This document shows positions 2,102 to 37,530 of a stretch of 64,000 bases of DNA, piece by piece. Within the stretch, counting starts at the first letter, position 1, and each line of letters begins with the position of its first letter. The DNA is from Elusimicrobiota bacterium. Lineage in GTDB: Bacteria > Elusimicrobiota > Elusimicrobia > FEN-1173. The notes beneath the pieces are model-generated. The model was not told where the DNA came from. It saw only the letters and a program-made list of their open reading frames with translations, and did no database searches. The DNA is taken from the NCBI GenBank assembly GCA_016714745.1, contig JADKCG010000002.1:25161-89160 (forward strand), written 5' to 3'. Made by a program: the position numbers and the translations under genes.

Positions 2102-2102
2102 A

Positions 2103-4082: not shown

Positions 4083-5867
4083 CTATTCAAGAAAGAGATG
4101 CATGGCGGCCTTTGTCACAGGCCCAAAATATTTACCAACGTACACCTGTGCCCGAGAAAATCGTTCTTGCCATTGTTCCTCGCTAAAAGATCGGACATCT
4201 GCCATGGCTTGAATAAAATCTTCTCTCGTGCGAACTGTCCATTTGGCATCGGATAGCTCAAAGAGAGGATCGGCATCTAGGAAATCGTCCACCGGGATAT
4301 GAAAAAGGGGTTTTCCGCGCTTCAGACAGTTAATGGCCAACGTGGATGAACTGTAGATGGCCACATCTGCCCAGTCAATCATTCGATCATGATCCAAAAA
4401 AGTGTCTTCAACAAATGGAAATTGGATTTTCGAACGAAGATCTTTGTTAAGAGGAATCATCGGGTGTGGACAAAGACAAAAGGAACATTCCATGCCTTTC
4501 TGATATATCGAATTGATAGCGGCAATCATTCGATGATAATAATCACGACTCGCTGAGAGCACCACCAGGAAACGAAGAGGCGCTTGACGCCGGTGTGTAT
4601 CAAAGACAGTGTTTCCCCGTTGCCTTAGGGCACAGCCGGTCTTCACGATTTCCCGAGGGAATAGCCCGAGGTCCACCAAAATCCGGCTCGTGATCTCACC
4701 AGAAGAAATGACCACATCCGGCAGAGGCATGCGGTCATTTTGAGAGCGAAAATATTCCGTATGCTTCCGTGTAATCGTAGCGTGCTGATATCCAATGATC
4801 CGAGTGTCTTTGCTGTGCGCTCGTATGACGCGCATATCCGAGCGTTCAAATCCTCGATTTTCATAAGGCAAAATAAACCGGTCGACGTCCCATCCTTCCA
4901 CAAGTTTTCTCGTCGCTCGCTCATTCATCACGCTCACCAAATATTGGTCCGACCTCACCTCATTCATGACACAGTCACGCACGATGCGTCGCATCGAAAT
5001 CCCACGGAACGGAGATGTCCGCAAAAACGAGAAGATCGTTTGGATCAACGCTCCCATCGCCTGAATGAAACTCCCGAAGAGTTCTGGGAGAGTGAGCCAT
5101 TGCTCTATGGAACAGACCAGTCCCTGGGCCGATCGCCGTGTCCCCCTAAGAAAATCGTGATACGAGTCGATCACATTCCCAATGACAAAAACGTTCCTTC
5201 TGTTTTCCTCCAGGAAATGAGGCAATTCTCCAAAATACAGATCGCGATAGCTCCCCTGCCCGTCAAAGGATCCTTTACTGATAACTGTTTTGATCACCAC
5301 CAGCCGCCGAAGGTCTTTGGACAATAAAAAATGCCCTGAAACACATTTCCGCCCCACCGCCATAAAAAATCCGTAAATCATCCTTCCAGGCAATAAGTCC
5401 GTCAGAAGCCGGCGGATCCATGATCGATTCACTGTGAAATCATGAATGGGGCGATGTTTCCAATTCGATCGTGTTTGCCGAATGACAACAGGGTCGTCCA
5501 CAACAAAAACAATGTCCTGGGAATAAGTTTCTAAAACGTGATTCAAACACGTTGCATAAAAAACATGTTCACAGAATCCCGTGGAATGCACTCGTTTGCC
5601 GGCCAGGCTCAGACGTTTCCAAATAACGGATTCTTGAGAATTGTTGAGTTCCCCCATCCATGCCACAATGTCCTCTCCAAAGCTTCGGTTGACGTTCAGA
5701 AAAACGTCCCGAACGGGAATGGGAGTCCCCCCAGCCATCGAAAGACTTTTTGCCACTTCGCCGGAAAGATACTCTTTCAAGACAAGATAGCGAAAGGGAC
5801 GAACGGGAATCTTTTTGAGAGCTTTCTGAACCCCCTTTAATGAGTTGACGAAAAAAACTCCATTCAT
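4083..5867 (-). CDS. large uncharacterised protein with a GT-B-like C-terminal half (candidate glycosyl or nonulosonate transferase)
   Basis: 594 aa ORF, start coupled by ATGA to the upstream gene. The C-terminal motif DWADVAIYSSSTLAINCLKRGKPLF resembles the GT-B donor-binding end. Architecture is shared with 26804..28852 and 35584..37530. Confidence 0.5.
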   Translation of the reverse strand: MNGVFFVNSLKGVQKALKKIPVRPFRYLVLKEYLSGEVAKSLSMAGGTPIPVRDVFLNVNRSFGEDIVAWMGELNNSQESVIWKRLSLAGKRVHSTGFCEHVFYATCLNHVLETYSQDIVFVVDDPVVIRQTRSNWKHRPIHDFTVNRSWIRRLLTDLLPGRMIYGFFMAVGRKCVSGHFLLSKDLRRLVVIKTVISKGSFDGQGSYRDLYFGELPHFLEENRRNVFVIGNVIDSYHDFLRGTRRSAQGLVCSIEQWLTLPELFGSFIQAMGALIQTIFSFLRTSPFRGISMRRIVRDCVMNEVRSDQYLVSVMNERATRKLVEGWDVDRFILPYENRGFERSDMRVIRAHSKDTRIIGYQHATITRKHTEYFRSQNDRMPLPDVVISSGEITSRILVDLGLFPREIVKTGCALRQRGNTVFDTHRRQAPLRFLVVLSASRDYYHRMIAAINSIYQKGMECSFCLCPHPMIPLNKDLRSKIQFPFVEDTFLDHDRMIDWADVAIYSSSTLAINCLKRGKPLFHIPVDDFLDADPLFELSDAKWTVRTREDFIQAMADVRSFSEEQWQERFSRAQVYVGKYFGPVTKAAMHLFLE

Positions 5868-6886: not shown

Positions 6887-6898
6887 TCCAACGGCTCC

Positions 6899-12878: not shown

Positions 12879-12882
12879 AAAA

Positions 12883-13740
12883 TTAGAAAAACGTGTTCAA
12901 GCCGACGTTCGCCGCTTCCATGATCTCATTAAAACGGGGCGAGCGTAGGAACTTAAATGTCTCTTCTCTCGAGGCAATAACCCTGTCTCGCTTTTTTAAG
13001 TCGTCGTCCGTTCTGCCAGGATGGCAATAAAAAATGTCTTTTTCCCTGGGCTTCATGGTCAGATAATGGCGAAATACTGTCTCAAATCTATCGCCCCCCT
13101 CGTACACATAGTATCCCAGGAGATACCTATTGTGTGGGATGCCGCTTTTTTTCATCAATTTCCGGGAAAAGTGACCTGGGATGTGAATGAACATATTTCG
13201 AATAGCAAAACTGACGGAATACGTCCACCCCGAAGAAATACACCAGGGGAGAGGTAATCCAGCTACCCGCGTATAAATCGGACGAATCTTCTCTCTACTT
13301 AAGATCACTGCCTTAACAGCTTCACGCACAACCGGAAGCTGTTGAACGTGTTGGTGCCCATCAATGTAGTCGGGGTCTCGCCCAGTAATTTCCGAAAAAC
13401 GCTGTATCTGTGCCTTAATTTCTGCCAAGACAGATTCATAGTTAAGAACTCTTAAGTAGGCCTTTTTCATTAAATTCCCGAAAGAGAGAAAATCCCCTTG
13501 CGCGTCCACAAGGCCAGAATCTTGCTTGAGGACCGTCAGGGGCCTGCCTTCCGTTAACACAAGATGCAATCCCAAATCATACCTTGTCTTAATCAACCGA
13601 AGTTGTTCCAAAGATTTTTCAACTTCTGGCCAGATCACCATGCAACTGGTCGCGGAAACCCGTTTTCCCTCTATCAATTCAATAATACTTTCACTGACGG
13701 CAGGAGAAATCCCATAATCGTCAGCGCATAAGATCATGTG
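12883..13740 (-). CDS. ChbG/HpnK (YdjC-like) carbohydrate deacetylase family protein
   Basis: MILCADDYGISPAVSESIIELIEGKRVSATSCMV is a typical YdjC-family N-terminus. I start at this Met (13740) rather than 13785. Confidence 0.8.
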   Translation of the reverse strand, partial: HMILCADDYGISPAVSESIIELIEGKRVSATSCMVIWPEVEKSLEQLRLIKTRYDLGLHLVLTEGRPLTVLKQDSGLVDAQGDFLSFGNLMKKAYLRVLNYESVLAEIKAQIQRFSEITGRDPDYIDGHQHVQQLPVVREAVKAVILSREKIRPIYTRVAGLPLPWCISSGWTYSVSFAIRNMFIHIPGHFSRKLMKKSGIPHNRYLLGYYVYEGGDRFETVFRHYLTMKPREKDIFYCHPGRTDDDLKKRDRVIASREETFKFLRSPRFNEIMEAANVGLNTFF

Positions 13741-13830
13741 GGTATTTCTTTCTTTGGAATTCGGTGATGAGCGATCCCACTCCAAACGAGAGAGAAGATA
13801 CGATGGCCCCTTCTATTTCTAAATTTTAGT

Positions 13831-14898
13831 TTAGATCTTATCAAGTATGACCTTCGATGCTTCCTCAGCGCCATTTTTATTGATATTAAAGTTCTGGTGA
13901 GCTTGTACGAAGTCCGGGAACCGGCGGACCATTTCATTGATCCGGGGAACAACATTTTCCATGGTCGCACTCAACCCCAATCCCAAGTCCTCGATCACTT
14001 TTCCATTGATGAATTGCTCCGCGTGGTTGGGAACGGGGATCACCACCACGGGCTTGCGCAACACGACAGCCTCACTGACAGCACTGAAACCCCCATTGAC
14101 CACCATCATGTCGGCTCGATTGATAAGATCTTTATTGTCTTGTAATTTTCCATGAAACGTAATCCATTCATTCGATTCTCCATCCTGACCCACAACGTCC
14201 ACAGTCACGCCGGGCAGAGGATTGAGCTGTTTCAAAAATTTTGCGCTGGTCCCAAACTGAGAGCCACTGAGCATGACCAATATATTATTTAACTGAGCCC
14301 CCCCCGGCCTTACGGCCAGCCCGCTTCGAATGAACGGTGGAAAATGTTTAATTCGTCCATTTTCATGAGAAGAAAATGGAAGAATTGAAGGGCTTAACAC
14401 CACGTCAGGCACGTTCGAATGAAACCAATGATCACACACTTCGACGAAATATTGCATGCGAATTTCACTGGGCAACACGGGCATCACCGAACACGCCCCA
14501 ACAACGACGTCCGCGTTATTGATTGCGAACACAGGAATTGCGATCCATTTTTTGAGCCAGAAGAGGGTGTAATCAGAATCGATCACAAGGGCAGAGTAAT
14601 TATTAGTCCGAAGAAGATTTCGAAGAAGTTTAACGTTTTTTAGAAAAATCCAAGCAAAATGGGGAATTGCCATTATTGTTCGCCAAATGCTCAGCGCATC
14701 TCCCTTTCGGCCATAATAAAACCCATGGAATTCGTAAACATGCGAGGGGTAACCACGATTCTTAAAAAAGTAGACTCCATTGTTTGAGGTCAGGATATCC
14801 ACCACGGCCCCCTTGGAAACGACACATTGCATGATCGATTCACAGCGAGTGGAATTCCCAAGCCCCAACCCATTAACGATAAAAAGGATCTTCTTCAT
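13831..14898 (-). CDS. GT-B glycosyltransferase (MurG/GT28-GT1-like)
   Basis: MKKILFIVNGLGLGNSTRC N-terminus and C-terminal VVNGGFSAVSEAVVLRKPVVVIPVPNHAEQ motif. Confidence 0.7.
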   Translation of the reverse strand: MKKILFIVNGLGLGNSTRCESIMQCVVSKGAVVDILTSNNGVYFFKNRGYPSHVYEFHGFYYGRKGDALSIWRTIMAIPHFAWIFLKNVKLLRNLLRTNNYSALVIDSDYTLFWLKKWIAIPVFAINNADVVVGACSVMPVLPSEIRMQYFVEVCDHWFHSNVPDVVLSPSILPFSSHENGRIKHFPPFIRSGLAVRPGGAQLNNILVMLSGSQFGTSAKFLKQLNPLPGVTVDVVGQDGESNEWITFHGKLQDNKDLINRADMMVVNGGFSAVSEAVVLRKPVVVIPVPNHAEQFINGKVIEDLGLGLSATMENVVPRINEMVRRFPDFVQAHQNFNINKNGAEEASKVILDKI

Positions 14899-15503
14899 TT
14901 CACCCGCTCCCTTTTCAGCCTAAACCCAACCACCAAAGAAAACATCGAAACGCGTTGGTGGCCTGTTATTTCCAGTCCGGCGACGTTAGCCCATTTTTCT
15001 ATCTCATCCAGATTGAATAGGGTCAAATGAATGCCATGGGTCCGGTGAAACAACCGATACATTTTCCCGGCTAAAGATTCCAACGGGATTAAAATAACAA
15101 AGAGGCCCTGGGGATTAAGCATCGAGGCAACGTTGTAAAATATATTCTCAGGTTTCTGGAGAAACTCCAGGACCCCTGCGCAAACGATGGTATCGAACCT
15201 CGACTCGCTTTGAAAATATTGAATGTCGGCCTCTATTTTTTCGCAACCAGGGATATCAAGGTTCTCCAACATTTTCAACGAAAGGTCAACGCAAACCAAT
15301 CGACTGCATTTCCGTTCGTAAAGGAGTTTACTGTAATAGCCTGATCCGCACCCCAGCTCAAGAACGTCTCCCAAGGGATGACCTTCAAGCATCCCCATCA
15401 TCACTGCCGACTCACTCTCCCGAACATGTTTCCAAAGGAGCCCTCGTGATCTCTTGGAGTAATCCAAAGCAACGGAATCAAAATAACGTTTCCTGCTTGT
15501 CAT
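14895..15503 (-). CDS. class I SAM-dependent methyltransferase
   Basis: VLELGCGSGYYS motif I. 202 aa. Confidence 0.8.
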   Translation of the reverse strand: MTSRKRYFDSVALDYSKRSRGLLWKHVRESESAVMMGMLEGHPLGDVLELGCGSGYYSKLLYERKCSRLVCVDLSLKMLENLDIPGCEKIEADIQYFQSESRFDTIVCAGVLEFLQKPENIFYNVASMLNPQGLFVILIPLESLAGKMYRLFHRTHGIHLTLFNLDEIEKWANVAGLEITGHQRVSMFSLVVGFRLKRERVK

Positions 15504-16027
15504 TGAAAAGTGGGGTTCCCTGGCAAATGGTGGATAAAAGCCCCGAAACTTAGTTTTGGGGACCTAAAAATGTTAGGAGCCATTTCGCTAAAAGGGGAAA
15601 TAACCTCCCGTATTTGTTGTTCGGTGTAGTATCTTGGTACATATGTTTTTGTGCGGTGCCCATAAAAAAGATAGATATACATCTTGTGAGCGATTTGTTG
15701 AACAGATCGACGTCTCTCAGAAAAGCTATGAAGGTAATATTGACATTTCACGCGGGCCAGCATCTGCTGAATTTCAGCCAAATCCAGCCAATCGAGAAGC
15801 CCCAGGGAAACACAAATGTTGGCATCAACCTTTTCAAGAGAGATCGCATCCGATTGAAAAAGTTCCACGTTTCCTTTACCAAGAAGTGCCTTGTGTTCTG
15901 CTTTTGCGGCTTCGATGGCCACCGAAGAAATGTCAACGCCCACATATTTCGTCGCTCCTGCTTCCATTATTGAAGGTAGCAATCGAGCCGTTCCACAACC
16001 AATTTCCAATACCGACTTTCCCTTCAC
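15500..16027 (-). CDS. class I SAM-dependent methyltransferase
   Basis: VLEIGCGTARLL motif I. 175 aa. Confidence 0.75.
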   Translation of the reverse strand: MKGKSVLEIGCGTARLLPSIMEAGATKYVGVDISSVAIEAAKAEHKALLGKGNVELFQSDAISLEKVDANICVSLGLLDWLDLAEIQQMLARVKCQYYLHSFSERRRSVQQIAHKMYIYLFYGHRTKTYVPRYYTEQQIREVISPFSEMAPNIFRSPKLSFGAFIHHLPGNPTFQ

Positions 16028-17367: not shown

Positions 17368-17373
17368 TGTTCC

Positions 17374-18162: not shown

Positions 18163-18211
18163 TGATGAACTCTTTTTTTTAGATACCCGATTGTCCGGAC
18201 CGGGAACTGGT

Positions 18212-19066: not shown

Positions 19067-19095
19067 ACAGATTTTACTGATGTTTGAACTCTGTT

Positions 19096-20237: not shown

Positions 20238-20250
20238 GGGGAGCCCTCCT

Positions 20251-21246: not shown

Positions 21247-21300
21247 AGAAACTCCTAAAGGTTTTGGAAGAAGAAATAGGAAGACCGCACCCAGTTCGTG

Positions 21301-22362: not shown

Positions 22363-22496
22363 TCTATTCCTCCAATGACCAGCGTCCCAAGATCTGACAT
22401 TGAACCGCGGTCATTTTTTCTTCTCTCAGAGCCTGGAAACCATTTGATATCCAATCTGTGGGCACAAGCGATTGTCAACCGTCCTTTCTGGTTTTG

Positions 22497-23555: not shown

Positions 23556-24332
23556 TGTCGTCCTCCGTTAATCGATTAGAATTTTTTCTTATTTCGTCTG
23601 CGGCCGCACGATCTTCTTTCACGCGAGGGTATTCCGGCAATTGAGCGCAGTGGGAAACGATTTCCTTCAACGTTGGAACCCGCCCTTGAAAGTGGTTCAA
23701 TAGCTCATTTGCAAATCTTAAATCCGATTCGTAGTCAATGGTCAGCCTCAGTTGCGGCATGCGAACAGACTCAGACACTGAAAAAAAGTTCTTTTGTACG
23801 AATGGTGCCAGCTCAAAAAAATAGGTCATATACTCTCGCTCAGTTCCGGCGTGCGGGATCTCCGGTGGAGTTCTTCAAGAACCGAACTTCGCACTATTTC
23901 ACATGCTGTTCCGAGCGGGACTCCGATCTGCCGAGCATAATCGGCATTTGTTTCCTTCATCTTGATAAACATTTCATGCATGGAAATAAAATCCGTAAAC
24001 GGATTATCCCCCGTTATTCTCACAATGTATTCAGAAGGATGTGCCGCGACACAGCGGATAAACCGCTTCAGGACATCCTCCGCATCTCCACAAAAACACT
24101 TCACACCCTTTTCGGCACACCACAATTCTATCTCTTTGTCCTCATCAGCGGTGGTTGTGCATACGATAAAATCGTCAAGCCCCGATGTTCGCAGTCGGTC
24201 CACGAGCATTTGGAGGATTGGCTTCCCCGCGATCGTGCGAAACGCTTTTTTCGGAAGTCGTTTTGAAGCCATGCGAACAGCGACCAATCCTATGATCTCA
24301 GCCATAGATGCTTTCGGGTGAAATAACCTCAA
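23467..24332 (-). CDS. SpsF-type cytidylyltransferase, split into two ORFs in this assembly (probable 1-nt indel near 23830-23860)
   Basis: The N-terminal ORF (IIGLVAVRMASKRLPKKAF...RITGDNPF) stops at 23826. In the next frame I read GTEREYMTYFFE, which aligns with REHVTPYMKE of the paralogue at 17374..18162, so one ancestral gene is split inside a conserved motif. The 3' end overlaps the next gene by 89 nt, which is suspicious. Confidence 0.7.
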
Positions 24333-25326
24333 ATAATTGGATTTCTTTTTGGGCGATATGCCCTACCACCTGATCGGATTGATTAATTGTAAAAAATTGG
24401 GCCCGAGGAGATAAACGCGCACAACGGCCAGTAATGTCCTTTGGGCGGATCTGAGCTCCTCGTCGAATGGGACGCGCCGCTACTATTAATTTCCGCTTGG
24501 ATCGCGAATAGTCCTGTTCTGAATGGGACAGTAAAAAGGACGGTGCACCCAGAGCGGCGTGGGTAAGCTTCAAACACTGAAGAAGTTGATCAAACTGGGA
24601 TGGGTCATACGCTGATTGCCAATCGTATAACGTCTCCCTTTCTTTCAAAAAGGCGTGTTTTTCAATACAGCACGCACCCACCCCCATAGCGAGACAAGGC
24701 ACATGTGCCGAGAAAGGGTCAGAAGCCGGAGAATGGTCCATGTAACCAACCGGACAGCCGTATCGCTCTCTCAAAAATTTAATTCGATTCACGTTCGACT
24801 CCACTATTGGAGTAGGGAACGCCTGAAACCCCACCATGAGACAGAACGCCTTTCCCGCACACAAACTGACCATCGCGTCGATTTCGCTCAACGTCGCGCC
24901 CCCAACGGAGATCAGGACTGGTTTTCCATATGAAATGACTTTTTTAATAAAAGAATCGTTCCCAATGTCACTGGCATAGATCTTAAAACCGTCGGCGCCA
25001 ACTCGATCCGCCAATGCCAATGATTTTTCGCCAAACACATCGAAATAGGCTTTTTTCCTTGCGCGATGAACGAGCCGAACAATTTTTGAGAATTCCGATT
25101 GAGGAAATTCAAACGATCTAAAGAGTTGATATTGGGGATGAATCGGAGTTAAAAAATCATCCGCCACAATGTACTGGAATTTAACGGCAGGCACCGCCGT
25201 GCGACAGAGGGCCTCCGTCAAACGGCGCAAATAGCTGAGAGAGCCACCATGGGAATTGGCGATCTCTGCAATGAGGAGCGGAACGGCATGGGGCTTTTTA
25301 GACAAAGGAAATCTCCCGGTTTTCAT
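24298..25326 (-). CDS. NeuB-family nonulosonic acid synthase paralogue with an SAF-like tail
   Basis: VPLLIAEIANSHGGS...AVKFQY...GYMDHSP...IEKHAFL. Start placed at MKTGRF (25326), giving an ATGA overlap with the flippase stop. Confidence 0.75.
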   Translation of the reverse strand: MKTGRFPLSKKPHAVPLLIAEIANSHGGSLSYLRRLTEALCRTAVPAVKFQYIVADDFLTPIHPQYQLFRSFEFPQSEFSKIVRLVHRARKKAYFDVFGEKSLALADRVGADGFKIYASDIGNDSFIKKVISYGKPVLISVGGATLSEIDAMVSLCAGKAFCLMVGFQAFPTPIVESNVNRIKFLRERYGCPVGYMDHSPASDPFSAHVPCLAMGVGACCIEKHAFLKERETLYDWQSAYDPSQFDQLLQCLKLTHAALGAPSFLLSHSEQDYSRSKRKLIVAARPIRRGAQIRPKDITGRCARLSPRAQFFTINQSDQVVGHIAQKEIQLFEVISPESIYG

Positions 25327-26837
25327 GGGACAATAGCGCCTAAATTTAAATCCGTCGAATTCTTGGATTTTAACAACCGCACTATCTTGCGTAATGTGTC
25401 GGGCGTCGCCACCTTCCAATGATAACCCGCGAAAAACAAACAACTCAATAGGACAATTTTAAGGAATAACTGACTTGCGTAGGACGCGTCCATTGCGCGC
25501 ATAAGAATGCCTGATGCGGTGCTCAGCATAAAAATCGCATACACACAAAACACGAATCCCCACTCAAATCTGATTTTATACAAAAATTGCCCCATGACAG
25601 TAAGCAACGCATTGATGGTCACATACGAACCCAACATGGCCACGGATGCGCCCATCAGCCCATACCGTGGGACCAATAATATATTCATGCCAACGTTAAC
25701 CAATGTTCCGACAATGGTGACAAAAAAGATATACAAGGGCCTTTTCATATAAGCAAACTGAACCCCGACGAACATGCCAAAGATGTTGGTCGACATGGCA
25801 CAAAGCACGATCATTATCACATCCACGGCGGGCCTGTACGTTGGAGGAGCGAGGAGTCGAATAATTTCAGGGGAAAACAACAGAAACGCGAGCAAGGGGC
25901 AAGAGGTTGTAAAAAGAAAATAGGAGAACAACCTCCCAACAGGTCCACTGGCCTTTTCTCCCTGATCAAAGACCTGCCGGTAACACGGAGGTTGGAACGA
26001 AGACCAAATGGCGTTCATAAATGAAAATGATGCATTTCCAAGACTCTGCCCAATGTTATAAACACCGACGGCTTGAAGTGTTAGCGACTTGTTTAACATG
26101 AATTTATCGAAAAATTTTCCGACAAATCCCGTGAATGATTTTGGAATACTTTGCACCCCAAAGAGAAGGCTCTCTTTAAGCATGGCAAGACTCAAGCTTT
26201 TCTTAAAGTGTTTCATAAAATAGAGGGTGCCTAGCGTGGATGCGACAAATGAGCTTATGAGGGATGCGTAGACCAACGCCGTATAGTTTTTTAATGCGAG
26301 ACAGAGCAACACGTTAAGTGCGCTCAAAAACACAGCGTGAAATATTGAAAAAAAAGAATGGGTTTTTGCATTTTCAAAATTCTGAAGTGTCGTCAAATAC
26401 ACATTGAAAATCGTCAGTAAAAACAGGGATATGTAATATATGAAAAATATTTTCCCGTAGCCTTCATCCCCGATGAGCATTCTGGATAAACTGTTCCTGC
26501 AAAAGAAAACGGGAACCGCAGTAACAAAGAGAGAAAGATACAGGAATAATTGACATGTGAATAGAAATTGCCCTAATCGATCAGGTTCTTTTCGGTATTC
26601 AAAAAAGAACCGTTGGACCGCTGAGGGCATTCCCCAGGAAAAAACCCCTACCGCAAAGGTGGGAAATATCGTTGCCATCGTCACTACGCCAAAATCTTGG
26701 GGCGTCAATATCCGAGTTAATATTGGAAGTGTGATCACATGGACTGCCATACCAGCAAACTTCGGCAAAATATAGAAAAAAGAGTTTACGATCGTCTTCT
26801 TTTCTACTTCCATATAGAAACGGACTCCGAACCCCAT
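25323..26837 (-). CDS. Wzx/MOP-family polysaccharide flippase
   Basis: About 500 aa of hydrophobic helices throughout. The N-terminus (NSFFYILPKFAGMAVHVITLPILTRILTPQDFG) is typical of polysaccharide biosynthesis (Wzx-like) proteins. The start could instead be the Met at 26813. Confidence 0.75.
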   Translation of the reverse strand: MGFGVRFYMEVEKKTIVNSFFYILPKFAGMAVHVITLPILTRILTPQDFGVVTMATIFPTFAVGVFSWGMPSAVQRFFFEYRKEPDRLGQFLFTCQLFLYLSLFVTAVPVFFCRNSLSRMLIGDEGYGKIFFIYYISLFLLTIFNVYLTTLQNFENAKTHSFFSIFHAVFLSALNVLLCLALKNYTALVYASLISSFVASTLGTLYFMKHFKKSLSLAMLKESLLFGVQSIPKSFTGFVGKFFDKFMLNKSLTLQAVGVYNIGQSLGNASFSFMNAIWSSFQPPCYRQVFDQGEKASGPVGRLFSYFLFTTSCPLLAFLLFSPEIIRLLAPPTYRPAVDVIMIVLCAMSTNIFGMFVGVQFAYMKRPLYIFFVTIVGTLVNVGMNILLVPRYGLMGASVAMLGSYVTINALLTVMGQFLYKIRFEWGFVFCVYAIFMLSTASGILMRAMDASYASQLFLKIVLLSCLFFAGYHWKVATPDTLRKIVRLLKSKNSTDLNLGAIVP

Positions 26838-28852: not shown

Positions 28853-28870
28853 GTGAAAGACATGCTCCCC

Positions 28871-30808
28871 TTAATACCACCCTGTAATACACAAAGTGAT
28901 GAGAGTGACCAGGTTGTTAAAATCTTGGCCGTCCGATTCTTTCTTTTGAAGATACGCGTCTGTGATTGAATCAAGATATTTAACATTGAAAGAACGATCG
29001 TCAAGGAGGGCTCGATAGGGTTTCGATTTAATTGTTTCCCTGAAATAGTCACTCACTCCCGAGCGGTAAACGACCTCTTTTGTCAGAGAAAAACCTTCGA
29101 GAACGTCATAGAGATAGGAATGCGGGCCGGTTTCAAGCAATTCGTAGGGGAATTTTAGCCGGTTTTTTAATAACCATTTAAGAGGATATTTTGTGTTATT
29201 AAGGTCAAGTCCTCGACCCCATGACTCGGGAGCCTGGGAAAGAAGTTGGACCAACCGGAGATCATTAAACGGAGAACGCCAACCATGTCCTTCCTTTTCC
29301 ATAGCATGCTTTTGAACGTTAACGGTCGATCCCTGCGAATGCATGCTGTGATAGAGATAGATCATCCACGAATAAATTGTTTCCGGAGTCATGGAATCCA
29401 GTTTTTGAAAACACTCATCAAACAGGTAATTGAATGTCTTGTTTTGAACGGTTTTCCTCAGCGCTGGATTCTCAAGGGTTTTAACAAAGGGGATCCGAGG
29501 CGCACCGTAAAACAACGGAGACAGATAACTACGTACCTTCCCTGATTTGGATGAAAAATTTTTGGCCAACTTCAACTGAGGATTCATACGCTGAAATATT
29601 TGAAATACTTTATCACTCACGTAAGAACCTTCAAGGACTTTTTTAAAAAAGGTCGGCCCGTAAAGATAACAATTCATTTTATCAGCGTATTCCGTGAAAG
29701 ATTTGACAGTGTGAAAAAACGTGACGAATTGAGAAAACCCAAAATTGTGAAAAGAATCGGAGGTTTCCCCATTGAAAATGGTACCCGAATCCCCGTTTAG
29801 CCGAGTCAGTCCTTCCGATACACGCGAATAATTATGGGTAACAATGGTGTAAATATGACGTGATTTATAAAAGGAAAGCAGTTTCTCCCAGTGAGCTACG
29901 ATCCCCTTATTTTTGAAATCCAACGGAACGATTTCCGGACGAATCCCAAAAAATTTTCCAATTTTTTTAATTTTCTCTATTTCAAAAGAATTGATGATAT
30001 TGGTCGCTTTTGAATACAACATACTACCGGTTATCATTCCCACTTTCTTCGCTCCGAACTCGTCCACCAAGAGCCCGATCAAGCTTGACGAATCCCAACC
30101 GCTCGAGCTCGAGACCCATGTGGTGCCATTTTGATTGGCGCGTGTTCTCACAGAATCTCGCAAATAACTTTCGTATTTTGACAAGTGGTCTTGAGTGTAT
30201 TCTTGTATGGGAAGCGGCTTGAATGCGATGATTTCTGTTTCAATGGCAAATCCATTCAAATGTTTAATCTCGCCCACAGACAAACGATTCACTCCCGCGT
30301 ACATCGTTCTTGGCTTCGGAACATACCACCCATAGACCGAGAACATGTGGGCAATCATTTTCTGATCGTAACGGGGGGTGAAAAACCGAAAGAGCATATC
30401 CAAATCAGAACTTAGGTAAAATTGATTATTTTCTTCTGCATAAAAATAATCTTGACGAGAGTACTTGTCTGCAAAAATAATCGCCTTTTTTTTATCGGAA
30501 TCGGTGAGGAGACACAGAAATTGACCTTCCAGAAAACGGTGAATGTCCCTATAAGAATGTGCACGAAATGTTTTCTGAACCTGCTGTTTTGAATTCATCG
30601 GAGTTATAGAACCATCGGGGTGGACGAAATAAAACAAATCACCCCAAATATACGCCGTTTTCGTCGCCGAAATCTGAACCGCCTGATCTGCGGTCTTAAG
30701 GCTGGCAAACAAGGGAGACCCCCGCCCCACGCCCATGACGGGTTCAAGAACAAGCCCCAGATCACGTTGACAGTCACCGGTACCAATGAAGAAATTACGC
30801 ATGGTCAT
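28871..30808 (-). CDS. asparagine synthase-like PP-loop amidotransferase/ligase lacking the N-terminal catalytic Cys
   Basis: WVSSSSGWDSSSL matches the SGGxDSS PP-loop of AsnB-type enzymes. The N-terminus is MTMRNFF, not MCG. 645 aa. Confidence 0.6.
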   Translation of the reverse strand: MTMRNFFIGTGDCQRDLGLVLEPVMGVGRGSPLFASLKTADQAVQISATKTAYIWGDLFYFVHPDGSITPMNSKQQVQKTFRAHSYRDIHRFLEGQFLCLLTDSDKKKAIIFADKYSRQDYFYAEENNQFYLSSDLDMLFRFFTPRYDQKMIAHMFSVYGWYVPKPRTMYAGVNRLSVGEIKHLNGFAIETEIIAFKPLPIQEYTQDHLSKYESYLRDSVRTRANQNGTTWVSSSSGWDSSSLIGLLVDEFGAKKVGMITGSMLYSKATNIINSFEIEKIKKIGKFFGIRPEIVPLDFKNKGIVAHWEKLLSFYKSRHIYTIVTHNYSRVSEGLTRLNGDSGTIFNGETSDSFHNFGFSQFVTFFHTVKSFTEYADKMNCYLYGPTFFKKVLEGSYVSDKVFQIFQRMNPQLKLAKNFSSKSGKVRSYLSPLFYGAPRIPFVKTLENPALRKTVQNKTFNYLFDECFQKLDSMTPETIYSWMIYLYHSMHSQGSTVNVQKHAMEKEGHGWRSPFNDLRLVQLLSQAPESWGRGLDLNNTKYPLKWLLKNRLKFPYELLETGPHSYLYDVLEGFSLTKEVVYRSGVSDYFRETIKSKPYRALLDDRSFNVKYLDSITDAYLQKKESDGQDFNNLVTLITLCITGWY

Positions 30809-31403: not shown

Positions 31404-31440
31404 TCATCCACCCAATTCGCAAAACCAAATTTTTTGATTT

Positions 31441-32469
31441 TCATCGACAGTTTATTTGACAATCTTTGCAGGCCGCTATTTCGTCGTACCTTTGCTCCCT
31501 ATGCAATTGCCTCATGGCTGTGAGTTCGGGGCTGTGCCAAAGGTCTCGGATCGTGCGTGTTTTGATATCTCCGATGGGGTTCTTACTGTGGTGGTCCCCG
31601 CAACACATCAACACGGTGCCGTCAAAGAGAATGACCATTCTTTGCCAGAGTTGCGGGCAAGGAAAGCGTTCCTTTTGTTGAGGGGCCTTCACCTGGGCGT
31701 CTTCGCCTGCTTCATTGTTCCCGGAACGATAACGTGAGATGCCGATCCTGTTCACTTTATCCTCCCAAAAGTGGATGTAATCCTTGAGTTCCTTTTGGTT
31801 CATGGACATGTACACCATTTGAACCATGACGGAGGGGAATTTTGACCCCATTTCATTGCGAATCCGAATAAATTCAAGTATGCGTTCCAGAGTCTTTTCG
31901 TAATGGGCCCCTTTGCGAACGGCATCGTAAAGGGACGGGTCCATACTGTCCAGCGAGAACTTAATGCGCACCAGCCCAGCGGCGATGAGGTCCCGGGAGA
32001 GTTTTTCGTTGAGCAAGGTACCGTTAGTGTTAAACTGAACATCCATAATCCCCGCTTCGCGGGCCAAACGAACGAACTCCGCAATCCGAGGATGAAGGGT
32101 TGGTTCCCCTCGAAAATTAAACTTCACGGACGGTAGTTCTGCTTTGTTGAGCCTAATTTCGTCCATGATCTTCTTGAAAAGATCAATGGAAATTAAACCA
32201 GACGGCATGGTGTCAAAGGGAATTTGGCACATGGTACATCGGAGGTTACAGACGGCCGCCGCTTCCACATCCAAGTGCAAAGGGTAGTCGCCCACCGTCT
32301 GAGTGCGGGGAAGTTCGGACCAATTTTTTCGGTAGGCGAGATAGGAGGGGCCGAGGTATTTTTCCACATTGTCATGGCGGTCGGTACCGAGAACCTCTAA
32401 ATAGTCTGCGCTCACGGGGACCACCCGTTCCATTGGCAATAAGTCCATGGGAATAAATACAGTGTTCAT
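31441..32469 (-). CDS. radical SAM / SPASM-domain protein
   Basis: AAVCNLRCTMCQ (CxxxCxxC) and C-terminal CPQLWQR...LMCCGDH...CKDCQINC. Confidence 0.8.
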   Translation of the reverse strand: MNTVFIPMDLLPMERVVPVSADYLEVLGTDRHDNVEKYLGPSYLAYRKNWSELPRTQTVGDYPLHLDVEAAAVCNLRCTMCQIPFDTMPSGLISIDLFKKIMDEIRLNKAELPSVKFNFRGEPTLHPRIAEFVRLAREAGIMDVQFNTNGTLLNEKLSRDLIAAGLVRIKFSLDSMDPSLYDAVRKGAHYEKTLERILEFIRIRNEMGSKFPSVMVQMVYMSMNQKELKDYIHFWEDKVNRIGISRYRSGNNEAGEDAQVKAPQQKERFPCPQLWQRMVILFDGTVLMCCGDHHSKNPIGDIKTRTIRDLWHSPELTAMRQLHREQRYDEIAACKDCQINCR

Positions 32470-32530
32470 TTAACCCCCTTCGATTCCGATTCAGACGATC
32501 CCCGTTGATCGGTCCTTTTCATTCTATCAC

Positions 32531-33238
32531 TCAAGTCGTCCGGCTTCGAGCGATACTTTCGGCAAATAAAAAATCCCGTTCCTCATCAATATCAAGCCCC
32601 TGAAAATGATCCAGCACATAATAATACGGTTTTTCGCCTATTCTATCCCCTATTATTTTCATCGTGTCCACATTTGTGATAAAAACCGCTGAATTAACGA
32701 TATACCATTCAGGAAGCGTCTGGGTGCGTGGCCATTTCTCAGCTTTCCTAGAATAATTGACCGGACCGCTCTGGTCCCATATGAAGGTCTTTAAAGACGT
32801 GACCGACATTAGCGAATCAAACCCGCTATTCAACGATTCGACATACAGATCGATGGCCTTCGTCAGCACCCTGTCGTCTGCAAAGGGTTGAGTTGTATGA
32901 GTCCATAAAACGTGCTTGGTTTTTATCTTTGGGGCAATATGTTTGATTAAATCATCGGTGCTTGTGGAGCTTCCTGCGAATTTCGGATCCCGCCGTTCCA
33001 CCCTAATTGATGAAACATCCTCTCCCGCCCCTTTGAGCCGATCCAAAATGTCTGTTATTTCCGGCACATCCGTATCCACCACGATCTCGTCCAAGGCTTT
33101 CACCCTTAATAACTGCTTGATTTTGAGTTCTGTCAACCCAAAGGGATATGGACCGAAGGGACGGGTATTTTTATTTAGGACCCTTTGACTCCCCGCACGA
33201 ATGGGGAGAACAGCCGAGATGGTTTCCCCCTTCATCAT
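32531..33238 (-). CDS. acylneuraminate (NeuA-type) cytidylyltransferase
   Basis: ISAVLPIRAGSQRVLNKNTRPFG N-terminus. Start placed at the MMKGE Met, which abuts the stop of the upstream gene (ATGATGA). Confidence 0.7.
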   Translation of the reverse strand: MMKGETISAVLPIRAGSQRVLNKNTRPFGPYPFGLTELKIKQLLRVKALDEIVVDTDVPEITDILDRLKGAGEDVSSIRVERRDPKFAGSSTSTDDLIKHIAPKIKTKHVLWTHTTQPFADDRVLTKAIDLYVESLNSGFDSLMSVTSLKTFIWDQSGPVNYSRKAEKWPRTQTLPEWYIVNSAVFITNVDTMKIIGDRIGEKPYYYVLDHFQGLDIDEERDFLFAESIARSRTT

Positions 33239-34929
33239 GTCGTGGCCTCCCAAACGACCCGATGGTGCTTCTGAAAGATCGTGGGCGTGATGATCCAAAA
33301 AGCCGCGGATTTCTCAGCAAGGATAACGCGCGCTGTCTCCAATTCTTTATGTGTCATCTGATTCAGTGTTTCAAATTCTTGCCTCTTCTCGTCCGATTCA
33401 TCTTCCGCTTTTTTCTCCGGCGAATCCGAGTTGGGGTAATAAAAAAGATTTCTCTCGTTGGGAGAAAACCCATCCATCCCTGCCACATAGATTTCCTTGA
33501 ACCCGATCGCGGCCATCGACAAAATGGCTTGCACTCCTGAATTGGTTGGCAATTTATGGGGAAAAACGTACTCTTTGTTTAAAGAAAATGCGTCAATGGG
33601 AATTCTCGAAATAGTGTCTTGAGGCCCCCCCTCTCCCTCGTCGATTTCGATGTAGGGGTTGAGAATCACTTGCACCCCAGCTCCCCCCTTTTGATAATTT
33701 TGTCTTAACCGACGGGCGCTTCCAAAAAAGACGGCATCCGTTCGTTCTGGAAGAAAATTATTGTTTACACACACGACCGCGCATTTCGTTTCATCAACGA
33801 ACCGGCGGATGGAGTCCATGGATGTGCCCAGGGTCCCTCCCCCACACGCGATCAACACTTTCCCTTGGGAAGATCCGACCAGGCCCCTCACTTTTGTCGT
33901 GGTGACGGGCATCAACTTTTTTGCTTTTTCTATTTTGTATTGGAAAGCAACATTGATATTTTTTTCTCGGTTAAATTCAGCTCGTTCGTCAAAAGGGATT
34001 TTACTGAGTGCAAGAAAAACCTCTTTGGCTGAATAAATTTTCAGTTTCAGCATTTCCCCAGCGTAGTGGGGGTGACAATTCAGCGCCCCAGAGACGACTT
34101 GCGCCACTGAATTTCCCCATTTATATTGTTTTTTTAACGGCTCCATGTAAATTTCAGCGAAATCAAGCAAAGGGAGCGCGTTGTATCTTGTCGGACTAAC
34201 TTGACCAAGATAGAGAAGCAATGTCTCTATGGGTAAATTTCCTCCTCCCCTCCCCATCCCATTAACAGAACCATCAATGATGGAGACACCCCCTTGAATG
34301 GCCTCAAGTGTGTTGGCAAAAGCCAGTTGGAGATTGTTGTGCGGATGAAATCCCAGGGGGGCATCTGTCTGCGATCGGATGGTTTTTAAAATGTCCCTCA
34401 ATTTTGATGGGATGAGACTGCCAAAGCTATCCGCAAGATAAAAATACGTCACTTGTTTTTTATACTTTTCCATAAGACAGGCAAGGGCATTCATTTCCGA
34501 TGGGGTGTAATTTGAAATTCCCATGAAATTGACACTGGTTTCGTACCCCTTCCCCGCCAATTGCGCGGCAAGCTCAGCTCCCCGTTCCGCATCGGCCTTG
34601 CGTGTGACGATTCGAAGAATGTCCGCCCCAAAATCCCCCTGACGGGGAAACAGGCCAGCGATCAACTCTTTTGAAAAATCAACCAGGAGGGAAACACGGG
34701 CTCCGTTTTTGAATGAGCCGCGGATATCATTGATTAGTTTTGAGTCGCAGTTCCTAAAAAGGGAGGCCTTATCTGCCAAGGGGCTACAAAATCCCAACTC
34801 AACGTATTCGCACCCGGATGAGCTGACCGCCCAATACAGAGCTTTTCCGAAATCCACACTAAAATTCCAGTTGTTAATGTAACCGCCGTCGCGGATGGTA
34901 CAGTCAAGTATTTTGAGATTTTCAAACAT
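33235..34929 (-). CDS. two-domain fusion: N-terminal DRE-TIM metallolyase (HMGL-like aldolase) plus a C-terminal Cst-II/Maf(DUF115)-like Rossmann domain
   Basis: N-terminal LDCTIRDGGYINNW and GFHPHNNLQLAFANT (metal ligands of HMGL-like aldolases). C-terminal KVLIACGGGTLGTS...AVVCVNNNF...PTNSGVQAILSMAAIGFKEIYVAGMDGF parallels the Campylobacter Cst-II motifs VIIAGNGPSL...FRCNQFYFE...TSGVYMCAVAIALGYKEIYLSGIDFY as I recall them. Confidence 0.6.
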   Translation of the reverse strand: MFENLKILDCTIRDGGYINNWNFSVDFGKALYWAVSSSGCEYVELGFCSPLADKASLFRNCDSKLINDIRGSFKNGARVSLLVDFSKELIAGLFPRQGDFGADILRIVTRKADAERGAELAAQLAGKGYETSVNFMGISNYTPSEMNALACLMEKYKKQVTYFYLADSFGSLIPSKLRDILKTIRSQTDAPLGFHPHNNLQLAFANTLEAIQGGVSIIDGSVNGMGRGGGNLPIETLLLYLGQVSPTRYNALPLLDFAEIYMEPLKKQYKWGNSVAQVVSGALNCHPHYAGEMLKLKIYSAKEVFLALSKIPFDERAEFNREKNINVAFQYKIEKAKKLMPVTTTKVRGLVGSSQGKVLIACGGGTLGTSMDSIRRFVDETKCAVVCVNNNFLPERTDAVFFGSARRLRQNYQKGGAGVQVILNPYIEIDEGEGGPQDTISRIPIDAFSLNKEYVFPHKLPTNSGVQAILSMAAIGFKEIYVAGMDGFSPNERNLFYYPNSDSPEKKAEDESDEKRQEFETLNQMTHKELETARVILAEKSAAFWIITPTIFQKHHRVVWEATT

Positions 34930-35574
34930 AAGGTATTAGGTCTTTCATGTTTTTAATTTTTTTCCACACATGGACTGAATCCATTTTTGCTCCAGACGGG
35001 TAATAAACAAACCGAATCCCAAATGAAAAAGCCGCGTTGGCATCGGCCGTCGCATCCCCGACAAAAATTAAGTTTTCCGGAACCATCTTTTGTGACCCCA
35101 AAATTTGTCTCACGCCTTCCTCTTTTGAAATCGGGGACCCGAAGATCCCGTTGAACTTTTCAAAAATCCCCAGTCGAGTTAAGTGAAAATCAAGTTCGGC
35201 CCGGGGGGCTCCTGAAACAACAAACATCTTAATCCCTTTATTGGCACAGATGGAGGTCAAATCCGAAACCCCCGGTGTCAGCTGTGCCGTTTCCATATAA
35301 TTGTCAATGCATTTGTCAAGGGAATCAAGCATTGATATTAACGAATCTTCGCTCACAGGCACCCTCACGATATTATTAATGAAATACTTCACTTGATTAA
35401 CCCGCCCTACGCCGTAAGAAGCCAAATGATATTCCATAAATTCCCGTTCCCACTGTGGGTAATATTTGGTGACCCATTCCCTGAACGCTTTAACTTTTTT
35501 TCAATGGAATCGATCAATACCCCGTCGCAATCGAAAAGAATGGCTCTTATTTTATCCTTTTTCCTCTCCATCAT
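34922..35574 (-). CDS. HAD-superfamily hydrolase, frameshifted at a T7/A7 homopolymer in this assembly
   Basis: Own translation from the ATG at 35574: MMERKKDKIRAILFDCDGVLIDSIEKK (HAD motif I, DxDGV). It leaves frame at the T-run 35495-35501. One extra base gives ...VKAFREWVTKYYPQWEREFMEYHLASYG, joining ORF 34922..35437. Confidence 0.8.
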
Positions 35575-35583
35575 AGAATCGTA

Positions 35584-37530
35584 TTAATTTTCCAGAGCCC
35601 CACGAACAAAGTGAGAAATGTTGGCGGAATAATCTTTCGTGTATTTGTAGGGCTCAAAAGATTTATCCCCGATAGGCGTTTTATTCCTTTTGGCCTGGCG
35701 GAGATAGTCAAGTGCCTTTGGGAGCAGGGGAGTCTCTGTGACGTAGCAAACGGGAAAAAAGGGTCCATCCGTCTCCGCGACATTTTTGGTGAACTCTGGC
35801 GTATTGAAATGGTTGTATCGTGACCAACGATCGTACAACAACACGGGAATGCCGTTTATCAAGGATTCATCAATGACTGTCGAGGAATAGCTCACAACGA
35901 CGTCGGCGCAGGCCAACACCTGGGAAAAGGGCCCCTCTCTGTGGATAATAAGATGGCTTGGATTGCCGAGCCTATTCCTTATTTCATCATCATTCAGTAT
36001 GAACCCCGGGTGGAGCCTGAGGACATAGCGCGCGTGGTCCAATCGACCGACCGCCTCGAGCATATCCCGCACACCGATAAAAAACTCGTCCAGTGTTTCA
36101 ATAAACAAGTATCGCTCCCCACTTCGGTTTTTTATCGTGGAAGCGTGCACGACAACAAAATCATCATCAGCCAACCCCAAATTGCGTCGTGCTTTTTTAA
36201 TTTTGTTACCATCCAGATCCACAAATATCAACGGGCCTGTTCTCAGTCCGACCCCCCGGACAAAATCATACTTCTCTTTAAAATAATTAAAATGTGCTTC
36301 TTGAACGGGTGTCGCGAGGGCAACGACCGGGAAAACCCCCAGCATGAATCCGCGACACAAATTGAGCAGTTCAACTTCGTAGGGCGGGGAAGAAGGCACC
36401 GGGTGCGATCCGTGGGAGATAAACAGAGACGGTTTATTTGACAACGAAAAGAGTTCGCCAACCACACCATACAGATCAACCCCCACATGCGACAGAAAAA
36501 TAGATCGTTTGCAGAATGCCATATACTGATCGACCCTTTCCGCTTGCATAACAAGGGCCTCCATGTGGGGAAACAAACCGGCGCGCGCTTTCTTTATCAA
36601 TATGGATTTTAAGGAAATACCGAAAAGCATGCACACCCCATCCGGGAGAGATTGAAGCGCCTGGTCAAGAGCGCTCGTCATTTCCGCTCGCCCCGGAAAT
36701 GAAGGGACCAAAGACTTCCGAGGCCGTGTTGGGATAAAAAATCGCACAGGCCTCCACCTCACAAACAGGCGCGCCAGGGACACGAAGTTCCAGAGAAGAC
36801 TTTTGACGTTGTAAGACTTTCTCGTTAGAACGACATAGGTCGGGTTGTGGGGTTTTAATATTTTTTCAACCTTATTGAAGGATTGACCGAGGGGCGGTGT
36901 AAAAATAACTTTTTCCCTCTGTAAGGTTGAAAAAATGATTCGTGCGAGCACGTCGGAAAAGAATCCACATGCTTTATCCCAAACTCGGGATACCCGGAGC
37001 GGAGAAGTGGACGATTTTTCATGGCCGGCCAAAGCAACGAACGGGATATTCCTCTGTCGGCAGAATCGTTCCGCTATTTCACCTAAGAATCTCTCTTGAT
37101 CGTCGATCATTGCTGTATTTTTAACGATCGATGACGAAAAGAAATAGAGAGTCAGACCTGGATAATGATCAATAATGGAATTCACGATCCATGCCATCTT
37201 GAAGAGGTGATTGGCATAAAAGCGGAGATGAAGGGCGACCTCAATCCCATACGAGATTTTTACCCCAAATTGATCCGCGAATTGGAACAAAGAACGAATC
37301 GACTCCATCAGCGGCTCAACGGCGTAAATAAGGGTCGAATGGATGTGGGGGGGGAAGAACGCAAGGGTGTCTTCGAAAACAACTTGTTTTTTGCTCAAAA
37401 AAACTTGCAAAGCCGGCTCGCAAGCAACAATCGTAAATTCAGAAATCGCAAGACCATGCGCAGAGCAATACTCCTCCAATAGGCAATATTCATTAGTGAA
37501 TTCAAGGACAGCGACATGTCGATCGGTCAT
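35584..37530 (-). CDS. large uncharacterised protein with a GT-B-like C-terminal half
   Basis: 648 aa. C-terminal FVVVHAST...YVLRLHPG...VLACADVVVSYSSTVIDESLINGIPVLLYD resembles the GT-B donor-binding end, as in 4083..5867. Confidence 0.5.
   Translation of the reverse strand: MTDRHVAVLEFTNEYCLLEEYCSAHGLAISEFTIVACEPALQVFLSKKQVVFEDTLAFFPPHIHSTLIYAVEPLMESIRSLFQFADQFGVKISYGIEVALHLRFYANHLFKMAWIVNSIIDHYPGLTLYFFSSSIVKNTAMIDDQERFLGEIAERFCRQRNIPFVALAGHEKSSTSPLRVSRVWDKACGFFSDVLARIIFSTLQREKVIFTPPLGQSFNKVEKILKPHNPTYVVLTRKSYNVKSLLWNFVSLARLFVRWRPVRFFIPTRPRKSLVPSFPGRAEMTSALDQALQSLPDGVCMLFGISLKSILIKKARAGLFPHMEALVMQAERVDQYMAFCKRSIFLSHVGVDLYGVVGELFSLSNKPSLFISHGSHPVPSSPPYEVELLNLCRGFMLGVFPVVALATPVQEAHFNYFKEKYDFVRGVGLRTGPLIFVDLDGNKIKKARRNLGLADDDFVVVHASTIKNRSGERYLFIETLDEFFIGVRDMLEAVGRLDHARYVLRLHPGFILNDDEIRNRLGNPSHLIIHREGPFSQVLACADVVVSYSSTVIDESLINGIPVLLYDRWSRYNHFNTPEFTKNVAETDGPFFPVCYVTETPLLPKALDYLRQAKRNKTPIGDKSFEPYKYTKDYSANISHFVRGALEN

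Follow-up and report, generated by a model that had tools for sequence, protein, structure and literature searches.

Nonulosonate biosynthesis genes are widespread, and to our knowledge only a handful of transferases are known for pseudaminic (Pse), legionaminic (Leg) and related sugars, namely Maf/FlmG for flagellins, the Tannerella TagB-like enzymes and KpsS1. Which enzymes, then, could transfer the sugar acids that a glycan gene island of an uncultivated bacterium appears to produce? The question is raised by a 64,000-nucleotide stretch of an Elusimicrobiota bacterium (assembly GCA_016714745.1, contig JADKCG010000002.1, positions 25,161 to 89,160 of the forward strand), here called the window, which codes for three large proteins, P0001, P0002 and P0003. 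The explanation that we favour, at somewhat better than an even chance on comparative and structural grounds, is that all three are cytoplasmic glycosyltransferases (GTs) of the GT-B fold, which would transfer nonulosonic or other ulosonic acids, activated with cytidine monophosphate (CMP), onto a lipid-linked glycan. An initial annotation, made from the sequence alone, had described the three proteins as sharing one GT-B-like C-terminus and had matched them, as candidate nonulosonate transferases, to three NeuB paralogues. That reading is supported in part: the GT-B fold and the candidate role are upheld, but the homology among all three and the NeuB pairing had to be corrected. The three proteins are the following.

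4083 to 5867, minus strand: P0001, 594 amino acids, ATG start; family A1; GT-B candidate and divergent relative of TIGR04326
26804 to 28852, minus strand: P0002, 682 amino acids, GTG start; family A2; predicted GT-B fold
35584 to 37530, minus strand: P0003, 648 amino acids, ATG start; family A3; TagF-like GT-B protein

Fold, kinship and motifs of the three proteins

The three open reading frames (ORFs) are real and intact, all on the minus strand; positions and lengths are as first described, and the C-terminal peptides then quoted are present. Public gene calls are shorter at the N-terminus for P0002 (592 amino acids, starting about 90 residues later) and P0003 (604 amino acids, about 44 residues later); the long forms are preferred because homologues align from residues 1-7 and because the AlphaFold2 (AF2) models place confident strands in these regions. 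The impression that no family signature is recognizable agrees with the Pfam search, which gave no significant match for any of the three, and none of them matched the PF04464 profile at E≤1. In NCBIfam, P0001 matched TIGR04326 (39.2 bits, E 2.8e-10; curated cut-off 250 bits) and P0003 matched NF046086 (14.7 bits, E 0.012; curated cut-off 200 bits), both below the cut-off; P0002 had no match, TIGR04417 and NF046086 included. No transmembrane helix was found in the three proteins, which are most likely soluble or peripheral cytoplasmic enzymes, each extended by an N-terminal region of about 300 residues.

The AF2 model of P0003 (pLDDT 88, pTM 0.89), compared with the PDB by Foldseek, had TagF as its best match (3l7j, E 1.9e-9), followed by TarL, MshA, VldE and 2-epimerases of uridine diphosphate N-acetylglucosamine (UDP-GlcNAc). 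The model of P0002 (pLDDT 91.9, pTM 0.91) matched HepE, 2-epimerases, MurG and MshA, with template modelling (TM) scores up to 0.62 on the target. Matches at E≤1e-3 numbered 163 for P0003 and 20 for P0002, and the top ones listed were essentially all GT-B enzymes. Because of these structural matches of confident models, the predicted structures of P0002 and P0003 clearly have the GT-B fold. P0001 would have the same fold, given the homology between its family and that of P0003 over both lobes (97.4% in hhalign). The GT-B guess of the initial annotation is thus upheld, by models and Foldseek for two proteins and by profile homology for the third; its suggestion of a TagF-like protein holds for P0003, on the strength of the top match and of the relatives that match PF04464 (see below).

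Kinship among the three is more distant than first supposed. Pairwise BLASTP of P0001, P0002 and P0003 gave nothing significant; the best E value, 0.03, was at the C-terminal block (approximately residues 497-521 of P0001, 549-575 of P0002 and 540-566 of P0003), whose likeness is no more than suggestive on raw sequence. Family alignments were built for A1 (n=12), A2 (n=10; later A4, n=75) and A3 (n=23). A1 and A3 aligned in hhalign with 97.4% probability (E 1e-11) along about 266 columns across both GT-B lobes, and by this profile evidence P0001 and P0003 are distant homologues. The A1-A2 comparison was borderline (54-70%, E about 1e-4), with a co-linear alignment that is not decisive, and that of A2 with A3 was weak (5-35%); P0002 is related to the other two at the fold or borderline profile level only. 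The C-terminal blocks do align with each other in every profile pairing, where they form the usual strand-helix element of the GT-B nucleotide lobe. Of the claim of a single shared C-terminus, therefore, the block itself and the homology of P0001 and P0003 stand, but P0002 is only a borderline relative, and A1, A2 and A3 are not recent paralogues but ancient families distinct from each other. The N-terminal regions of about 300 residues showed no significant profile similarity among the families (26% for A1N against A3N, about 1% in the other pairs); the one hint of a common N-terminal domain is that secondary-structure elements follow the same order over the whole chain in the P0002 and P0003 models.

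As to family membership, all 12 A1 members match TIGR04326 significantly (best 3e-20), each below its cut-off, and two of them match NF046086 (E 9e-7); five of the 23 A3 relatives match PF04464 (up to 4e-7). A metagenome scan with a single pattern returned 359 A3 relatives. The A2 profile found 2,128 clusters at 50% identity, 1,115 of these at E≤1e-30, mostly full-length and of about 690 amino acids; A2 is a large though unannotated family. Its Pfam affinities are weak and limited to LpxB (3 of 70 members) and Glyco_trans_1_4. In one locus (L023) a TIGR04417-like 'PFTS motif' protein fills the A2 slot, with the AsnB-like gene on one side and Wzx on the other, and hhalign matches it to the A2 profile (83%, E 9e-6); judged from this alignment, the P0002 family is a distant sister of the TIGR04417 proteins. 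PDB sequence and profile searches with A1, A2, A3 and A4 gave faint KpsC and LpxB matches only, and that with P0031 none.

Two invariant histidines characterize the TagF-like enzymes, a base (TagF H444, TarL H300) and a leaving-group histidine 133 residues on in TarL (H433) (PMC10901376). The (K/R)xHP sequence is the CMP-binding motif of sialyltransferases and of the GT99/GT107 transferases of 3-deoxy-d-manno-oct-2-ulosonic acid (Kdo) (PMC12887879), and Tannerella forsythia, too, has an HP motif in its TagB-like Pse/Leg transferases (PMC5420450). P0003 contains SHG (H373), HAxTxK (462-467), R505-L-H507-P508 and SYSST..E (547-555), and the spacing between H373 and H507, 134 residues, compares with 133 for H300/H433 of TarL. 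In a set of 97 A3 sequences H373 is invariant (94/94), position 505 is K or R in 95 of 95, P508 is found in 90 of 95, and position 507 is occupied by H 41 times and by R 53 times. The motifs of P0001 are IGYQH (H362), xHP (H468-P469) and ADVAIYSSST...G.P; H468-P469 is invariant and H362 near-invariant in A1; the (K/R)xHP motif is present in both A1 and A3. P0002 has FDENS (D464/E465), KPGYP and TGRC (R528), and its family has invariant residues of its own, D434, D464, R528, D551, D577, D634 and R640.

Conserved gene neighbourhood and proposed activity

The genes surrounding the three families were compared in two sets of loci. The A2-anchored set comprised 15 loci from named genomes of about 10 phyla, with carriers that include Brocadia, Omnitrophota, a Flavobacteria metagenome-assembled genome, Nitrospirae, Saganbacteria/WOR-1, Margulisiibacteriota, Fibrobacterota, Lindowbacteria, Alphaproteobacteria, Terriglobia and Dehalococcoidia; the A3-anchored set comprised 40 metagenome loci of at least 10 kb. 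Among the A2-anchored loci, NeuB was found in 11, a cytidylyltransferase in 11, Wzx in 10, A3 in nine and A1 in six. A CTP_transf_3 gene, in one to three copies, was present in 39 of the 40 A3-anchored loci, A2 in 22 and A1 in 11; NeuB and HMGL were found in 10 loci each, and one or the other in 19. Adjacency was counted in 80 loci, many of them incomplete, and a cytidylyltransferase directly adjoins A3 in 47. Long loci of the 'HP' subtype of A3, to which P0003 belongs, carry A2 in 23/25, Wzx in 21/25 and NeuB in 15/25 cases, and with the 'RP' subtype a cytidylyltransferase is still present in 26 of 28 loci.

The linked cytidylyltransferases all belong to CTP_transf_3 (PseF/KdsB-like) and not to the TagD or TarI/IspD class; PseF/KdsB-like cytidylyltransferases are the class of enzymes making CMP-ulosonates. 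These linkage counts indicate that the strongest partner is a CMP-ulosonate-type activating enzyme, not NeuB as such. The idea of three transferases matched to three NeuB paralogues is not borne out, as the conserved partner is CTP_transf_3, itself present in three copies in the window, and the P0003 module is without NeuB; co-occurrence with NeuB across genomes is seen in the A2-anchored loci (11/15), but in the A3-anchored ones it is far exceeded by that of CTP_transf_3 (10/40 versus 39/40).

Three gene arrangements recur: a methyltransferase gene, A3, CTP3 and either an HMGL-like gene or Fe-ADH_2 plus a short-chain dehydrogenase/reductase (SDR); NeuB, GNAT, an AsnB-like gene, A2 and Wzx; and A1, a SPASM radical S-adenosylmethionine (SAM) enzyme, NeuB2, CTP2 and NeuB1. 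In the window, the P0003 module has an HMGL-type aldolase and a HAD phosphatase. Gene fusions were also observed. An A1-type protein is joined to a radical SAM/SPASM enzyme in a 934-amino-acid protein of Saganbacteria (L005, 14425-17226; L010, 16328-19129), and the two genes stand side by side in WOR-1 and Margulisiibacteriota; P0030 is a P0003 orthologue fused to a HAD phosphatase. The A1::SPASM and A3::HAD fusions support a functional coupling of these proteins. The corresponding genes of the window are listed here.

1 to 408, minus strand: third NeuB-family gene, N-terminus only, cut by the start of the window
1046 to 2113: PseG-like GT28 ORF
17374 to 18246, minus strand: CTP1, KdsB-like CTP_transf_3 cytidylyltransferase
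22497 to 23555, minus strand: NeuB1, NeuB/LegI-like nonulosonate synthase with a SAF domain
23467 to 24332, minus strand: CTP2, KdsB-like cytidylyltransferase, split in two ORFs (23826-24332 and 23467-23829)
24298 to 25443, minus strand: NeuB2, divergent NeuB-family synthase
25323 to 26837, minus strand: Wzx-type flippase, the next gene downstream of P0002, an arrangement shared by most A2 loci
28871 to 30808, minus strand: P0004, AsnB-like PP-loop protein of 645 amino acids, directly upstream of P0002 and a conserved neighbour
31441 to 32469, minus strand: radical SAM/SPASM enzyme (SPASM342), whose orthologues adjoin or are fused to A1 members in other phyla
32531 to 33298, minus strand: CTP3, PseF-like CTP_transf_3 cytidylyltransferase, conserved partner of A3
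33235 to 34929, minus strand: HMGL-like protein of 564 amino acids, with an N-terminal part like 4-hydroxy-2-oxovalerate aldolase; recurs beside A3 and CTP3
34922 to 35437, minus strand: HAD phosphatase, directly downstream of P0003
37531 to 38445, minus strand: SAM methyltransferase (orf304), which precedes A3 in many loci

From the ORFs, the folds, the homology of P0001 and P0003, the conserved motifs, the gene linkage and the fusions we infer a donor, an acceptor, catalytic roles and a final glycan. The island would make several differently tailored sugar acids, by NeuB paralogues or by the HMGL-type aldolase, with radical SAM, methyltransferase, GNAT and AsnB-like enzymes for tailoring, and CTP_transf_3 cytidylyltransferases would activate them as CMP esters. 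Each GT-B enzyme would then bind one CMP-sugar in its C-terminal Rossmann lobe and move the sugar acid to a hydroxyl of the lipid-linked glycan at the cytoplasmic face, and Wzx would flip the finished product. In P0001 and P0003 the donor may be bound by the (K/R)xHP motif and the 'SYSST...E' block; the histidine of the N-lobe (P0003 H373, P0001 H362) could act as a base on the acceptor, and that of the HP motif (P0003 H507, P0001 H468) could assist the departing CMP phosphate, as in TagF/TarL. P0002 would use the same fold with a different, acid/arginine-based site (invariant D434, D464, R528, D551 and D577), and its chemistry is less predictable.

The nearest precedent for the three proteins is provided by the TagB-like Pse/Leg transferases of Tannerella forsythia (Tanf_01245, TFUB4_00887 and BFO_1060; NF046086), whose knock-outs lose the terminal Pse/Leg derivative (PMC5420450). 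These are GT-B/TagB-like enzymes with an HP motif, coded beside genes for CMP-nonulosonate biosynthesis; likewise, P0001 (H468-P469) and P0003 (H507-P508) have the HP motif and share a co-directional island with NeuB and cytidylyltransferase genes, while P0002 shares with the NF046086 family only its position beside CMP-nonulosonate genes. The Tannerella enzymes, however, have about 445 amino acids, versus 594-682 with the extra region of about 300 residues here; moreover, P0001-P0003 score far under 200 bits and are not NF046086 members, the host belongs to the Elusimicrobiota, and three such proteins occur in one island. The weak NF046086 similarity and, above all, the conserved neighbourhood strongly favour the role of candidate nonulosonate transferases first proposed, with a putative donor sugar.

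Other known systems for comparison are the retaining, GT-B-like ulosonic-acid transferases KpsC/KpsS (GT107), WbbB (GT99), KpsS1 (GT118) and KrkA (GT140), which use CMP-Kdo or CMP-Pse as donor and bind CMP by (K/R)xHP. KpsC matched the A1 profile faintly over the region of the HP motif (E 0.7-0.9, not significant), and none of these enzymes was among the top 50 Foldseek matches of P0002 or P0003. TIGR04326 (LIC13510-type 'surface carbohydrate biosynthesis protein') and TIGR04417 are computational families of about 520-600 amino acids from surface-glycan loci, and they add a name, not a mechanism, to A1 and A2. With respect to known systems, P0001-P0003 would be a variant of the cytidine-nucleotide-dependent transferases derived from TagB/TagF that occur in nonulosonate loci.

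In this way, CMP-sugar-activating enzymes are tied across about ten phyla to three large families without annotation, A2 alone having more than 2,000 clusters at 50% identity. If confirmed, the proposed activity would add up to three glycosyltransferase families, give handles for the chemo-enzymatic synthesis of nonulosonate glycans and help to explain the acidic surface glycans of many uncultivated bacteria; the cultivable Marinomonas sp. S3726, which carries related genes, makes the idea testable. A more far-reaching view, which we consider rather unlikely, is that A1-A3, three cytidylyltransferases and the synthases form one conserved machine that is widespread among uncultivated phyla (Elusimicrobiota, Saganbacteria, Margulisiibacteriota, Omnitrophota, Brocadia, Nitrospirota and others), producing a glycan or polymer largely of several ulosonic acids heavily tailored by radical SAM enzymes. 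The HMGL aldolase and the HAD phosphatase would then provide a NeuB-independent route to an ulosonic acid, and A1, A2 and A3 would each found a new family of CMP-ulosonate glycosyltransferases; A1 and A3 would derive from the TagF scaffold, with N-terminal domains that may serve processive polymerization, and A2 would be histidine-independent.

Competing explanations

Several observations weigh against the transfer of CMP-ulosonates by all three proteins. Both histidines and the HP motif are missing from P0002, where Q387 and 'KPGYP' stand instead, and the structures nearest to it are those of generic GT-B enzymes using UDP- or guanosine diphosphate (GDP)-sugars, together with 2-epimerases; for this protein, the CMP-sugar donor is thus suggested by genomic context alone. 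P0001 and P0003 appear to keep the TagF-like histidine pair, an equivalence drawn from motif and spacing, not from residue-level superposition, and over half of the wider A3 family has R in place of H in the HP motif. None of the scores comes near the curated cut-offs of NF046086, TIGR04326 or PF04464, and the literature search returned nothing that mentions TIGR04326 or TIGR04417 or characterizes such proteins. Some A1 members lie in clusters of O-antigen-like type where neither NeuB nor a cytidylyltransferase is found within 10 kb. Finally, the island holds further candidate transferases, namely two GT2, a GT28-like, a GT1_3 and a GT-C-like protein; the HMGL-like protein, too, could compete for the role with its unassigned C-terminal half, which may be a transferase-like or kinase-like domain.

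Some of these points lead to the alternative that survives best, which we nevertheless regard as unlikely: the three proteins, above all P0002, would be ordinary backbone glycosyltransferases using UDP- or GDP-sugars, and the acidic sugars would be attached by others, such as the C-terminal domain of the HMGL-like protein or the smaller GTs. The structural neighbours of P0002, its lack of the HP motif and the weak affinities of its family to LpxB and Glyco_trans_1_4 agree with this, as does its position next to the Wzx flippase, where backbone GTs are often found. However, the island already has four conventional GTs, and A2 is present in 23 of 25 long loci with the HP-type A3 and, across phyla, together with NeuB, cytidylyltransferase and AsnB-like genes; so close a linkage would not be expected of a generic backbone GT, because backbone GTs usually vary between loci.

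It is also quite unlikely that P0003, and perhaps P0001, are TagF-type phosphotransferases, which would take a polyol-phosphate or sugar-phosphate from a donor activated with cytidine diphosphate (CDP) and build a phosphodiester polymer similar to teichoic acid or capsule, the long N-terminal domain being the mark of polymerases. P0003 resembles TagF/TarL/TagB (PF04464; PDB 3l7j and 8va1) in its GT-B fold, in an apparent pair of conserved histidines with similar spacing and in a probable cytidine-nucleotide donor, and the polymerases have an N-terminal domain as well; TagF is the best structural match of P0003, TarL was also found, and five of 23 A3 relatives match PF04464. An extra N-terminal domain has been described for TagF-like polymerases (PMC10901376), and fusions to HAD phosphatases are known for TagF-like capsule polymerase machines (PMC10299916; PMC12887879). 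In some loci, moreover, A3 and the cytidylyltransferase are followed by a dehydrogenase of the Fe-ADH_2/dehydroquinate synthase (DHQ-synthase)-like type and an SDR, from which a polyol phosphate could arise. Against this, the cytidylyltransferase invariably linked to A3 belongs to CTP_transf_3 (PseF/KdsB/NeuA), the class that serves CMP-ulosonates, and not to TagD or TarI/IspD; P0003 misses PF04464 even at E 1; no amphipathic membrane helix or other membrane-binding segment is evident; and P0002 is without both histidines. The sole TagB-like enzymes tested genetically in a nonulosonate context transfer Pse/Leg derivatives (PMC5420450).

The remaining alternative, improbable in our judgement, is that one or more of the proteins, most plausibly P0002, is a nucleotide-sugar hydrolase of GT-B fold or a hydrolysing 2-epimerase of that fold (PseG/NeuC/LegG-like) that feeds a hexosamine to a NeuB paralogue, as could be argued from the UDP-GlcNAc 2-epimerases, NeuC included, among the best structural matches of both P0002 and P0003, from the lack of an Epimerase_2 gene in the island in spite of its NeuB/LegI-like NeuB1, from one A3 member of 23 that matches Epimerase_2 (3.6e-4) and from the place of the P0002 family just downstream of NeuB, GNAT and AsnB-like genes in many loci; but this structural likeness does not go beyond the generic GT-B level, the proteins exceed epimerases or PseG in length by about 300 residues, A2 is tied to Wzx, A3 and A1 at least as tightly as to NeuB, and the case is weakened further because the PseG-like ORF is already present in the window and because no A2 member (0/70) matches Epimerase_2 (PF02350) at E≤1, nor do P0001, P0002 and P0003. 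A Maf/DUF115 flagellin-glycosylation role was rejected, as the three proteins gave no such matches and the island has no flagellin genes.

Organization and minor features of the island

The glycan island extends from position 1 to about 38,450 of the window, with its genes in one direction, and has a low GC content (44-49%, or 41-50% in 2-kb windows, versus 52-59% beyond it, where the housekeeping genes rng, mrdA, rodA and mreBCD are located); this is compatible with horizontal acquisition. The RNase G protein falls into clusters of at least 90% identity with proteins of Elusimicrobiota, which makes a metagenome-assembled genome of this phylum the probable host. The three NeuB paralogues of the initial annotation are indeed present, at 22497-23555, at 24298-25443 and, incomplete, at 1-408. 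Besides these, the three CTP_transf_3 cytidylyltransferases and PseB-, PseC- and PseG-like genes, the island contains GNAT, AsnB-like and class-III aminotransferase genes, several methyltransferases, YdjC and five radical SAM enzymes, three of B12-type or related and two with SPASM domains.

Two genes of the island are split. The CTP2 pieces are ORFs of 168 and 120 amino acids overlapping at ATGA, and they align contiguously to single proteins of about 250-270 amino acids in three other loci (L005, L011 and L012). The PseC/DegT-type aminotransferase (19096-20237, minus strand) consists of two overlapping ORFs (19803-20237 and 19096-19824) with a frameshift-type change inside the conserved domain, which reflects either an assembly error or a pseudogene.

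P0004 (28871-30808), a large ORF without Pfam assignment, was considered as a fourth GT-B member and rejected, as it is an AsnB-like PP-loop protein; it has an SSSGWDSS motif and weak GATase_7 and Asn_synthase matches, and lies upstream of the P0002 family across phyla. In the HMGL-like protein, the unassigned C-terminal half of about 230 amino acids (residues 330-564, approximately) contains glycine-rich and 'GFKEIYVAGMDGF' motifs, which resemble the Cst-II/DUF115 type; the same half gave no match to PDB sequences.

TIGR04321 ('spiro-SPASM protein') is matched in its N-terminal half by CTP1 (17374-18246) and in its C-terminal half by the SPASM enzyme (31441-32469), which means that a cytidylyltransferase::SPASM fusion exists elsewhere; such a fusion hints that the radical SAM enzyme may act on a CMP-sugar or its precursor.

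Related genes were also seen in a cultured gammaproteobacterium, Marinomonas sp. S3726 (L021, JXYC01000004.1, 481131-502945). The locus has an A3-like gene at 10001-11815 of L021, a TIGR04326-like gene at 13721-15550 and a further unannotated protein of 574 amino acids, together with two cytidylyltransferases and an HMGL/CTP/HAD trio, with no NeuB within 10 kb, and it hints at a NeuB-independent route to an ulosonic acid.

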